Below, piece after piece: positions 43,109 to 52,527 of a stretch of DNA of 64,000 nt; position 1 is the first letter of the stretch, and each line of letters begins with the position of its first letter. Made by a program: the position numbers and the translations under genes. The stretch comes from Lachnospiraceae bacterium. GTDB taxonomy: Bacteria > Bacillota > Clostridia > Lachnospirales > Lachnospiraceae. Below the pieces are notes generated by a model. That model worked only from the letters and a program-made list of their open reading frames with translations, searched no databases and had not been told where the DNA came from. The stretch is taken from the NCBI GenBank assembly GCA_024698705.1, contig JAILQX010000017.1, positions 13,988 through 77,987 of the forward strand, in the 5' to 3' direction.

Positions 43109-43158
43109 TTCCGCATCAAAAAAGGACATCCTTTCGGATGTCCTTTTTTGATGCGGAA
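43109..43158. terminator. Long hairpin / intrinsic terminator after tRNA-Leu(AAG)
   Basis: Perfect 23-bp arms around TTTC, including A6/T6 tracts. Confidence 0.85.
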
Positions 43159-43235
43159 GATGGGACTTGAACCCACACGACGTAGCCGCCACAAGATCCT
43201 TAGTCTTGCCTGTCTGCCAATTCCAGCACTTCCGC
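43152..43235 (-). tRNA. tRNA-Leu (anticodon AAG)
   Basis: GCGGAAG/CTTCCGC acceptor stem with A73; anticodon arm CAAGA-CTAAGGA-TCTTG; long variable arm; GGGTTCAAGTCCC T-arm; CCA not encoded. Confidence 0.95.
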
Positions 43236-43365: not shown

Positions 43366-43377
43366 AACAAAGTGCTT

Positions 43378-43461
43378 GCAGAAATGGCGGAATTGGCAGA
43401 CGCGCACGGTTCAGGTCCGTGTGGTAGCAATACCATGAGGGTTCAAGTCCCTTTTTCTGCA
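43378..43461 (+). tRNA. tRNA-Leu (anticodon CAG)
   Basis: GCAGAAA/TTTCTGC acceptor stem with A73; CACGG-TTCAGGT-CCGTG; long variable arm; GAGGGTTCAAGTCCCTT. Confidence 0.95.
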
Positions 43462-43475
43462 TTGTATCTAAATTC

Positions 43476-50357: not shown

Positions 50358-51335
50358 TTATTTTTTCAGGCAATATATCCCCCAGTTTTTATTGGCGTTT
50401 CCGGCAAACCAGTAAAAGCCGTCATCGGAATCATCCGTACTGTGATCGTTGTCATCACCTTTTTTCCAATAGGGCTTCTTTCCTGTGGTGCTGACCTTAT
50501 TTTCAACACAAACCACAAAGTCGCCTTCTCTGGCCTTTGCATACCAGTCGTAGGTCCTTCCCGTGTTATCTATAGTCATGATATATACTTCGCCGTCATA
50601 ATAGCCGTTCTTGAAATTTCCGAGTACATTGACTATGCATGTCTCGCCCTTCACCTTTTCAACGTTGTAGGTGTAATGCTCCTGACCCTCGCCGTTTGGC
50701 AGATCGTTCTTGAACTGACCGTTGTACTGATGCTCAAGCACGCCTTCGTAGGTTCCTTCCACGCCCTCTTTGTCAGGGTATATCCTCAGCCAGTAACCGG
50801 TTCCTTCACGTATCCCGTTCTTCCAGTCTCCGAAATAATACGTGTCGTCGGCATATATGGCAAGTCCCCTGCCTTCGGGTTTATTATCACTGTTAACGGC
50901 ACCGTAATAATAATACTCATCCGTTCCCCTGAGTTCCCTTGAGATGTTCCTTACCCTTTCAAGCCTGATCAGATCAAATACGGCATCAAGTTTGTATTCA
51001 TCCCAGTATCCGTAAAGCTCGGCCATCTGACTGTCATCGTTTCTGACTGCCTTTAGTATCTTCTTCTCATAATGTTCTTCGTAGGTATAGCCCGATTCCA
51101 CTCCGGTCACAATCTGGGCATCCACGGGCTCGCTCTGTGCATCTGCGGGCTTCGCCTCTTTTGAAACGGCGGTCTCGGTCTCCTGTGTTTCCTTAAGTTC
51201 CACCTTCTCAACACTGTCAACGACCTTTATACGCTGATCATGCTTGCCGTCCGTCAGCAGCACTATCGCTACTATCGCTAGGATTATGATGATCGCCACA
51301 CCGCCTATGGCTATTTTTTTGTCATAATTGTTCAT
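50358..51335 (-). CDS. Membrane-anchored MORN-repeat-like protein
   Basis: N-terminal TM; YFGDWKNGIREGTG, YNGQFKNDLPNGEG, GNFKNGYYDG. Confidence 0.75.
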   Translation of the reverse strand: MNNYDKKIAIGGVAIIIILAIVAIVLLTDGKHDQRIKVVDSVEKVELKETQETETAVSKEAKPADAQSEPVDAQIVTGVESGYTYEEHYEKKILKAVRNDDSQMAELYGYWDEYKLDAVFDLIRLERVRNISRELRGTDEYYYYGAVNSDNKPEGRGLAIYADDTYYFGDWKNGIREGTGYWLRIYPDKEGVEGTYEGVLEHQYNGQFKNDLPNGEGQEHYTYNVEKVKGETCIVNVLGNFKNGYYDGEVYIMTIDNTGRTYDWYAKAREGDFVVCVENKVSTTGKKPYWKKGDDNDHSTDDSDDGFYWFAGNANKNWGIYCLKK

Positions 51336-51438: not shown

Positions 51439-51467
51439 TTGACATTCATTTGTAAATCTAATATCAT
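51439..51467 (+). promoter_or_regulatory. Sigma-70 promoter of tRNA-Pro
   Basis: TTGACA-17 bp-TATCAT. Confidence 0.75.
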
Positions 51468-51482
51468 AGTTGACGGACGTTT

Positions 51483-51555
51483 CGGGATGTGGCTCAGGTG
51501 GTAGAGCGCCTCGTTAGGGACGAGGAGGTCGCAAGTTCAAGTCTTGTCATTCCGA
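51483..51555 (+). tRNA. tRNA-Pro (anticodon AGG)
   Basis: CGGGATG/CATTCCG acceptor stem with C1-G72 and A73 (Pro identity); GCTC/GAGC D-stem; CCTCG-TTAGGGA-CGAGG; GCAAGTTCAAGTCTTGT T-arm. Confidence 0.93.
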
Positions 51556-51564
51556 TGGATAAAG

Positions 51565-51595
51565 AAAGCCGATGACTCAGGTCATCGGCTTTTTT
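51565..51595. terminator. Bidirectional terminator after tRNA-Pro
   Basis: AAAGCCGATGAC-TCAG-GTCATCGGCTTTTT. Confidence 0.88.
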
Positions 51596-51603
51596 GTGTA
51601 TTT

Positions 51604-52527
51604 TTATTCCCAAAGCTTCACGGGATATTCTCCCTTACTTTTAAGATCCTTTATGGCTGCGCTCACAAGAGGCTTGTCTTCCTTGTAGGTAACTCCGTGC
51701 CATACATCCGGTGTGGGCAGCATCTTTGCCGTAGCCTTACCTTCATGAAGAAGTTCGTCCACAACGAAAGGAAGGAAAAATTCTCCCTTGAGCGGATTAT
51801 CCGCAAGCTTCTCATCCAAAAATACCTTGAAACGATTCTCCAGTTCGTCCAGTATCGAATGTGTGAACCCCCACATGTTCATGGATACGTAGCTGTCCTT
51901 CGGCAATCTCACCCATGTCTTACCGTCGTTCTCCGTATATTCCGCATCCTCCCCATGCTTTTCTATACGTGTACGCTCGTGTATGGTTTCCAGATAGCTG
52001 TTTTCATCGATCACACATACGCCTCTCGACACATAACCGTTCTCAGTAAGCGTATTGTGAAGTTCATATCCAACAAATGCATATCTGTACTTATCGTCAT
52101 CCTTTGCAGTCTTGAGATATTCCGCTATCTTTTCAAAACCGCCTCTTCCGTAGAAATCATCGGCATTGATAACTGCAAAATTGCCTTCTATCGCATTCTT
52201 TGCACAAAGTACGGCATGTCCCGTTCCGAAAGGTTTTTCCCTTCCTTCGGGAACGCTGTATCCTTCAGGCAGCTTATCCAGCTCCTGAAATACATATTCA
52301 ACATCGACATATCGTGCTATCTTGTCGCCTATGGCCTCTTTGAATTCCTTCTCTATGGCATGCTTAATGATAAATACAATCTTGCCGAAGCCTGCCTTTA
52401 CGGCATCGAATATACTGAAATCAATTATGATGTCGCCTTCTTCGTCAATCTTGTCTATCTGTTTGAGGCCTCCGTATCTTGAGCCCATTCCGGCTGCCAT
52501 GATAACAAGTGTCGGTTTTGGATCCAT
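51604..52527 (-). CDS. Sugar-phosphate nucleotidyltransferase family protein
   Basis: LVIMAAGMGSRYGGLKQ, GTGHAVL, VINADDFYG, VSMNMWG. Confidence 0.88.
   Translation of the reverse strand: MDPKPTLVIMAAGMGSRYGGLKQIDKIDEEGDIIIDFSIFDAVKAGFGKIVFIIKHAIEKEFKEAIGDKIARYVDVEYVFQELDKLPEGYSVPEGREKPFGTGHAVLCAKNAIEGNFAVINADDFYGRGGFEKIAEYLKTAKDDDKYRYAFVGYELHNTLTENGYVSRGVCVIDENSYLETIHERTRIEKHGEDAEYTENDGKTWVRLPKDSYVSMNMWGFTHSILDELENRFKVFLDEKLADNPLKGEFFLPFVVDELLHEGKATAKMLPTPDVWHGVTYKEDKPLVSAAIKDLKSKGEYPVKLWE

Follow-up and report, generated by a model that had tools for sequence, protein, structure and literature searches.

A tRNA-Pro gene with the anticodon AGG, found in a Lachnospiraceae draft genome, raised the question of whether it serves as the decoder of the proline codons CCU and CCC and, if so, whether its A34 is read as such or as inosine (I34). 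Reviews and a 2026 survey describe A-starting anticodons other than Arg-ACG as nearly absent from bacteria, with only Leu-AAG and Thr-AGU fixed in clades. The gene lies on contig C14 of the assembly (2.54 Mb, 54 contigs, 44% G+C), within the 64,000-nt stretch of DNA that was analysed (C14:13988-77987), hereafter the window.

Structure and expression signals of the Pro-AGG gene

The following features were annotated in the window:
51483..51555, + strand, tRNA-Pro(AGG) gene (ARAGORN, Rfam RF00005, direct sequence reading, orthologues)
51439..51467, + strand, sigma-70-type promoter with -35 TTGACA (51439-51444), a 17-nt spacer and -10 TATCAT (51462-51467) (consensus scan, 11/12 matches)
51562..51605, + strand, intrinsic terminator with hairpin AAGAAAGCCGATGAC/GTCATCGGCTTTTTT, then a T-rich tail (terminator scan)

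ARAGORN called a tRNA-Pro(agg) at 51482-51556 in the window scan, as one of three tRNA genes in the window, and the RF00005 model covered 51483-51555 end to end (model positions 1-71 of 71; gathering score 29, observed score 61.6 bits, E = 1.6e-11), with a cloverleaf that fits the tRNA covariance model. The anticodon was formed by A34 (51516), G35 (51517) and G36 (51518) in the loop T32 T33 A34 G35 G36 G37 A38 (UUAGGGA), carried by the stem CCTCG/CGAGG. The acceptor stem CGGGATG/CATTCCG provided a C1-G72 pair, followed by the discriminator A73, and the CCA end was absent from the encoded gene. Direct reading of the sequence agreed with the sequence-only reading of this DNA, which had reported AGG at 51516-51518, C1-G72, A73 and intact stems; the promoter and terminator that it had described were likewise recovered by the consensus and terminator scans.

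In bacterial tRNA-Pro, the ProRS identity set consists of G35, G36, A73 and G72 (C1-G72), with G37 for m1G37. All of these elements were read in the sequence of the Pro-AGG gene, whose product is presumably charged by ProRS through G35, G36, A73 and C1-G72.

The promoter stopped 15 nt upstream of the tRNA, and the terminator hairpin, which with its T-run spanned 51562-51595, comprised 15 pairs, six of them G-C. To retrieve orthologues, the 73-nt gene was used as a BLAST query against 60 relatives, and the loci obtained were scanned with ARAGORN. In eight of 10 orthologous loci, a TTGACA box and a TATxATA box were preserved at a constant distance from the gene, with diverged spacer and flanks, and a hairpin with a T-run was found at the same place in most of them, with different stem sequences. 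As promoter and terminator were kept in position amid diverging flanks, the gene appears to be under purifying selection and to form its own transcription unit. Transcription would start from its own promoter.

The tRNA gene stood alone between two genes of the opposite strand. One (50358-51335, - strand) encoded a protein of 325 aa with a membrane helix at its N-terminus, the other (51604-52527, - strand) a predicted nucleotidyltransferase-like protein of 307 aa. The ORFs listed for 48.5-54.5 kb of the window included no mobile-element genes.

tRNA complement of the genome and the Leu-AAG gene

Only 31 tRNA genes were found in the assembly, and the tRNA set of the draft is therefore incomplete. 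The proline tRNAs carried the anticodons AGG, CGG and UGG, and Pro-GGG was found in this genome neither in the tRNA inventory nor by a pattern search, which also returned none in 25 other genomes of the genus. Pro-AGG was the sole purine-34 isoacceptor of its box, with no Pro-GGG in the genome, in the genus or in any AGG genus surveyed, as the sequence-only reading had anticipated. The leucine tRNAs were AAG, CAG, UAG and CAA, with GAG absent from the inventory; Arg-ACG was present, and the purine-34 threonine tRNA was GGU, not AGU. Thr-AGT and Ser-AGA, whose presence had also been anticipated, were both absent from the inventory of the genome, and the A34 set is thus confined to Arg, Leu and Pro, its expansion being limited to Leu and Pro.

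Two leucine tRNA genes were located upstream of Pro-AGG in the window:
43152..43235, - strand, tRNA-Leu(AAG), loop CUAAGGA (ARAGORN; Rfam 50.4 bits)
43377..43462, + strand, tRNA-Leu(CAG) (ARAGORN)

They were arranged back to back, 141 nt apart, with Leu-AAG 8 kb from Pro-AGG, and the earlier claim of a second A34 tRNA within 8 kb is hence sound. In a sample of 80 Lachnospiraceae genomes (40 with Pro-AGG and 40 with Pro-GGG), 71 had a Leu-RAG match, all of them AAG and none GAG. Because Leu-AAG was found in all matches whatever the proline state, it is a family-wide trait, older than the proline switches and independent of them. In Bacteroidales, Cytophagales, Succinivibrio and Verrucomicrobia, genomes with Pro-AGG carried Leu-GAG, which indicates that Leu-AAG is not required for Pro-AGG. 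The term expanded A34 strategy, proposed earlier, therefore describes this genome correctly (Arg-ACG, Leu-AAG, Pro-AGG), but only for Leu and Pro, and the two have separate histories.

Two wider ideas were considered and rejected. One was a common origin of the two A34 tRNAs, as Leu-AAG is family-wide and Pro-AGG is not; the other was a general rule by which Pro-AGG needs a relaxed TadA of the Leu-AAG type, as other phyla pair Pro-AGG with Leu-GAG.

Distribution and repeated origin of Pro-AGG

According to BLAST and ARAGORN, at least 17 genomes of the genus carried Pro-AGG, as did one genome of another genus. Four other independently assembled genomes of the genus contained an identical gene and at least 13 more contained diverged AGG copies, which shows that A34 is no sequencing error. 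Four backbone variants were distinguished by compensatory changes in the anticodon stem (CCTCG/CGAGG, CTTCG/CGAAG, CTACT/AGTAG and CCGTC/GGCGG), around an invariant TTAGGGA loop.

These data bear on the possibility of a silent, decaying or wrongly assembled copy (in reality GGG, CGG or UGG), with proline decoded by other tRNAs. With a draft of 54 contigs and 31 tRNA genes, unassembled DNA might in principle hide a Pro-GGG gene; however, AGG was found in over 17 genomes of the genus that were assembled independently, one of them 99% complete in 30 contigs, and GGG in none. The compensatory stem changes, together with the kept promoter and the kept terminator, point to purifying selection, the use of CCY codons goes up and not down in AGG genomes (see below), and no genome whose matches were listed in the family survey possessed both AGG and GGG. 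A defective copy is thus very improbable, and the earlier judgement that this is no pseudogene is upheld by an intact, separately transcribed gene whose orthologues keep stems, promoter and terminator.

Across bacteria, a Pro-AGG-specific pattern was searched in 185,579 species genomes. At least 120 species genomes or loci from several phyla matched, and ARAGORN confirmed 119 as tRNA-Pro(agg). Among the matches listed, most belonged to Lachnospiraceae, including the cultured Butyrivibrio sp. NC3005 and Lachnospiraceae bacterium COE1; the others were from Christensenellales, other Clostridia, Bacteroidales, Cytophagales, Succinivibrio and a Verrucomicrobia MAG. The clearly different backbones of the non-Lachnospiraceae genes indicate that the anticodon arose many times.

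Within the family, one genome per genus was surveyed (401 Lachnospiraceae genomes), with a GGG pattern widened for an AGGGC D-arm variant. A Pro-RGG tRNA was found in 231 of the 401 genomes. Of the 149 genomes with listed matches, 70 had AGG only (about 47%), 79 had GGG only, and none had the two together. By extrapolation, about a quarter of Lachnospiraceae genera use Pro-AGG. The family AGG genes displayed 25 different anticodon stems, all paired. The description of this tRNA as very rare in bacteria is consequently only partly correct: at least 120 species genomes have the gene, and the description is fair for reference collections but not for the Lachnospiraceae, where it occurs in about 47% of the listed genera with a Pro-RGG tRNA.

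Position 34 was perfectly tied to the 32/38 pair, as all 70 Pro-AGG loops were UUAGGGA (U32, A38) and all 80 Pro-GGG loops were CUGGGGG (C32, G38; e.g. G000:C14:65490-65529 vs G156:C56:87945-87984). Possible sources of AGG genes are GGG genes with two further loop changes, or Pro-CGG and Pro-UGG genes, which have the same U32/A38.

A FastTree phylogeny was built from the ribosomal-protein operons of 58 genomes (4114 columns). The window's genome fell within an 18-genus clade (local support 100%) in which every genus was AGG, and the remaining AGG lineages were scattered among GGG lineages. At least six AGG/GGG changes were needed on the tree, on which the label was strongly clustered (0 of 500 shuffles were as low).

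Proline codon usage

Proline codon frequencies were computed for this genome and compared between the ribosomal-protein operons of 30 AGG and 24 GGG genomes:
All genes, this genome: CCT 0.23, CCC 0.28, CCA 0.06, CCG 0.43
Ribosomal-protein operon (C39), this genome: CCT 0.25, CCC 0.36, CCA 0.08, CCG 0.32
Median CCY, all genomes: AGG 0.58, GGG 0.27
CCC, GC3 >= 0.4: AGG 0.36, GGG 0.09 (p = 1e-5)
CCT, GC3 >= 0.4: AGG 0.27, GGG 0.14 (p = 4e-4)
CCA, GC3 >= 0.4: AGG 0.03, GGG 0.16 (p = 6e-4)
CCG, GC3 >= 0.4: AGG 0.26, GGG 0.56 (p = 4e-4)
ACC (control), GC3 >= 0.4: AGG 0.30, GGG 0.29 (p = 0.8)

In the ribosomal operon of this genome, C-ending codons dropped in the other four-codon boxes (ACC 0.16, GCC 0.10, GTC 0.09), where A-ending codons dominated. 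In the CCT/CCC comparison that the sequence-only reading had suggested, CCY was higher in the operons of AGG than of GGG genomes. On six phylogenetically independent contrasts, CCY went up in about three, down in none and was tied in about three (sign-test p ~0.25); the direction was consistent across contrasts and the test was underpowered. The shift in CCY indicates that the A34 tRNA is a major CCU/CCC decoder. Overall, the gene very probably encodes a functional tRNA-Pro(AGG) that has replaced the GGG isoacceptor and performs most CCU/CCC decoding. As the main decoder of these two codons, it would be complemented by Pro-UGG and Pro-CGG, which would cover CCA and CCG.

Genome-wide, A-ending codons were avoided in exactly the three boxes with A34 tRNAs (CCA 0.06, CTA 0.02, CGA 0.13), and were the most used in the other four-codon boxes (0.29-0.36). 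CCC exceeded CCU in the proline box of this genome, whereas its Arg and Leu boxes favoured U-ending over C-ending codons (CGU 0.83, CUU 0.65), a difference that counts against the I34 reading.

In a rival account, the tRNA is functional but its A34 stays unmodified and reads CCU by Watson-Crick pairing and CCC by (protonated) A-C wobble, like Salmonella proL207; we regard this as a tentative but serious possibility. The Pro-AGG of proL207 is unmodified and reads CCC almost like the GGG tRNA at no fitness cost (as cited in PMC3711424), and that of the E. coli proL G34A mutant is also unmodified and reads CCC without a fitness cost (bioRxiv 10.64898/2026.05.15.725136). These E. coli and Salmonella tRNAs, the sole bacterial Pro-AGG tRNAs examined by experiment, mature normally, with CCC decoding nearly as good as that of wild-type GGG. 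Heavy use of CCC consequently needs no inosine, and codon usage was set aside as a means of discriminating I34 from A34, not being decisive when the unmodified Salmonella tRNA reads CCC well. Nevertheless, it is CCC and not CCU that rises most in highly expressed genes, which fits I-C pairing better than A-C pairing and to that extent favours I34.

TadA and the state of A34

The genome encoded a single TadA (C53:32810-33256; NF008113, 168 bits; S. aureus TadA 2B3J, 172 bits), and its sole further deaminase match was a dCMP deaminase. Exactly one TadA was found in 56 of 57 relatives. The enzymes were of the homodimer type (146-169 aa), and the TadA of this genome had no C-terminal extension of the S. 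pyogenes kind.

TadA of S. aureus and E. coli prefers U33-A34-C35-G36 (PMC10586758), a C35 rule that is also broken by the Leu-AAG substrates of Streptococcus. The three A34 loops of the genome, CUACGGA (Arg), CUAAGGA (Leu) and UUAGGGA (Pro), had U33, A34, G36, G37 and A38 in common and differed at position 35, with Pro differing also at position 32. Pro-AGG therefore departs from the preferred motif at position 35, which is G, and retains U33, A34 and G36. In the S. aureus enzyme, no base-specific contact is made with C35; G22 (R26 in E. coli) lines the C35 pocket, and R149 on helix alpha-5 (R153 in E. coli) reads G36 (PMC10586758).

The residues at these two surfaces were compared in an alignment of TadA from 29 AGG genomes, 24 GGG genomes and four genomes with neither tRNA (the last two groups being the 28 others):
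Gly at the nucleotide-35 pocket: AGG 29/29, others 13/28 (the rest E, D, K, Q, L, M or N); Fisher p 1.7e-6
I, V, L or A at +1 after the G36-reading Arg: AGG 19/29, others 0/28; Fisher p 4e-8
N, V or L at +3 after the G36-reading Arg: AGG 22/29, others 0/28; Fisher p 6e-10

Typical tails were LR-I-R-N-K and LR-V-R-V-K in AGG lineages and LR-E-K-K-K in GGG lineages, and the AGG-type tail recurred in each separate AGG lineage beside GGG-type sisters. Among eight phylogenetically independent pairs, the TadA features agreed with the tRNA in about five and disagreed in none (median sign-test p 0.06). Both the TadA and the codon contrasts fell short of p < 0.05 because the independent pairs were too few (6-8). 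The alignment suggests that TadA and Pro-AGG co-vary, short of formal significance.

The TadA of this genome had the pocket Gly and an atypical short tail (MR-T-S-N-R-stop), with the AGG-type motif only at +3, which is a point against the I34 reading. It ended early (...FFKQMRTSNR-stop; G000:C53:32810-33256; L031 1438-1947; outside the window), and a TAG was present inside the extended open frame upstream of its core. The tails of the genus relatives were longer and lysine-rich (LRVRLKTEK..., LRERNRAEK..., LRLRLKQEK...).

The sequence-only reading had named a broadened TadA and an unmodified A34 as the two options, and these are the right alternatives; the apparent co-variation of TadA tilts the choice towards TadA. 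The single TadA would most likely deaminate A34 of Pro-AGG to inosine, and would also have to act on Arg-ACG and, as in Streptococcus and Oenococcus, presumably on Leu-AAG. Several observations favour I34: a loop like the other two TadA-type loops save for position 35, a TadA type without a base-specific grip on nucleotide 35, and repeated TadA changes at the nucleotide-35 and nucleotide-36 surfaces.

Under an unmodified A34, the TadA differences would be lineage effects or would relate to other substrates (Leu-AAG, mRNA sites). This account draws support from the Thr-AGU and Ser-AGA tRNAs of O. oeni, which contain G35 and stay A34 (PMC8072771), from the occurrence of Pro-AGG beside Leu-GAG in several phyla without sign of a broadened TadA there, and from the TadA associations, which were below significance on independent contrasts. 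The U32/A38 of Pro-AGG was moreover the same as in the Pro-UGG and Pro-CGG of the genome, and is thus not a TadA-specific adaptation. Against it, two separate TadA surfaces, by nucleotides 35 and 36, changed with Pro-AGG in every informative independent contrast, and the pocket Gly was invariant in the 29 AGG genomes. For an enzyme of the S. aureus type, which lacks the base-specific C35 contact and already faces C35 and A35, G35 would also be a small step. Partial or condition-dependent editing would stand between the I34 and unmodified A34 readings.

On balance, the conversion of A34 to inosine in Pro-AGG appears somewhat more probable than not. The reading as a whole, a working CCU/CCC decoder whose A34 is probably deaminated to I34 by TadA, is held with moderate confidence.

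Comparison with known A34 tRNAs

Eukaryotic tRNA-Pro(AGG) is read as IGG after deamination by ADAT2/ADAT3, a heterodimer that recognises the whole tRNA. The Lachnospiraceae tRNA shares with it the anticodon, the absence of a GGG isoacceptor and the enrichment of CCU/CCC in highly expressed genes; unlike eukaryotes, these bacteria have only the homodimer-type TadA of 146-169 aa.

Among bacteria, tRNA-Leu(AAG) is read as IAG in Lactobacillales, including Oenococcus oeni, Streptococcus pyogenes and oral streptococci (PMC11472039, PMC13249217, PMC8072771). In both cases, an A34 tRNA of a four-codon box has replaced the G34 isoacceptor clade-wide in Firmicutes, with a shift in synonymous codons. 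The Lactobacillales case requires a TadA tolerant of loops without C35, and Leu-AAG itself also occurs in the window and the family. Pro-AGG differs in its amino acid and in its G35, for which there is no report as a natural TadA substrate, and its inosine is only inferred; in addition, the TadA of this genome lacks the C-terminal extension of S. pyogenes.

The proL207 and proL G34A tRNAs likewise have the anticodon AGG in place of Pro-GGG and still decode CCC. However, these are laboratory mutants whose host TadA is strict for C35 and whose A34 is unmodified, whereas the Pro-AGG described here is natural, long fixed across many genera and appears to co-vary with TadA; its loop is U32/A38, against the C32/G38 of the local GGG type. 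Mycoplasma tRNA-Thr(AGU) and the Thr-AGU and Ser-AGA of O. oeni are, like Pro-AGG, A34 tRNAs that occur naturally in bacteria, serve four-codon boxes and contain G35. These unmodified-A34 tRNAs have U36 or A36 and so lack the G36 read by TadA, which Pro-AGG keeps.

Replacement of a G34 isoacceptor by a non-Arg A34 tRNA, possibly together with a broadened TadA, is already known from Firmicutes, Leu-AAG being the described case. The literature search returned no paper linking A34 tRNAs with Lachnospiraceae, and the searchable literature yielded no natural, clade-fixed Pro-AGG accompanied by a codon shift and apparent TadA co-variation.

Implications and further Pro-AGG loci

Pro-AGG represents a stable and heavily used alternative to Pro-GGG in a major gut family, and it recurs in other phyla. 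With several independent AGG/GGG switches and cultured members, it offers a natural system for two questions, namely why ANN anticodons are avoided and how a sequence-specific TadA widens its substrates, a step before the eukaryotic I34 expansion. The finding is also relevant to codon optimisation and to the annotation of tRNAs in gut anaerobes. The chances seem evenly balanced that I34 has been extended to a third tRNA, tRNA-Pro(IGG), in a large gut and rumen branch of the Lachnospiraceae, with several independent origins, small nucleotide-35 pocket and alpha-5 changes in an ordinary homodimeric TadA, and proline codons re-tuned in highly expressed genes. If true, tRNA-Pro(IGG) would be a natural bacterial intermediate between one I34 tRNA and the eukaryotic set of eight.

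Some of the other Pro-AGG loci had features of their own. The Christensenellales-type genes (L034, L041, L042, L055, L075 and similar loci) started with T and ended with ...CCTCAACCA, which gives an encoded CCA and, where bacteria have C1-G72, a U1-A72 pair; such an acceptor end is unusual for a bacterial tRNA-Pro. An Anaerotignum MAG possessed a tandem pair of identical Pro-AGG genes, 107 nt apart (L103 2913-3170), and in the Verrucomicrobia MAG (L106; 0.8 Mb assembly), Pro-AGG was clustered with tRNA-Met(CAT) and tRNA-Leu(GAG).
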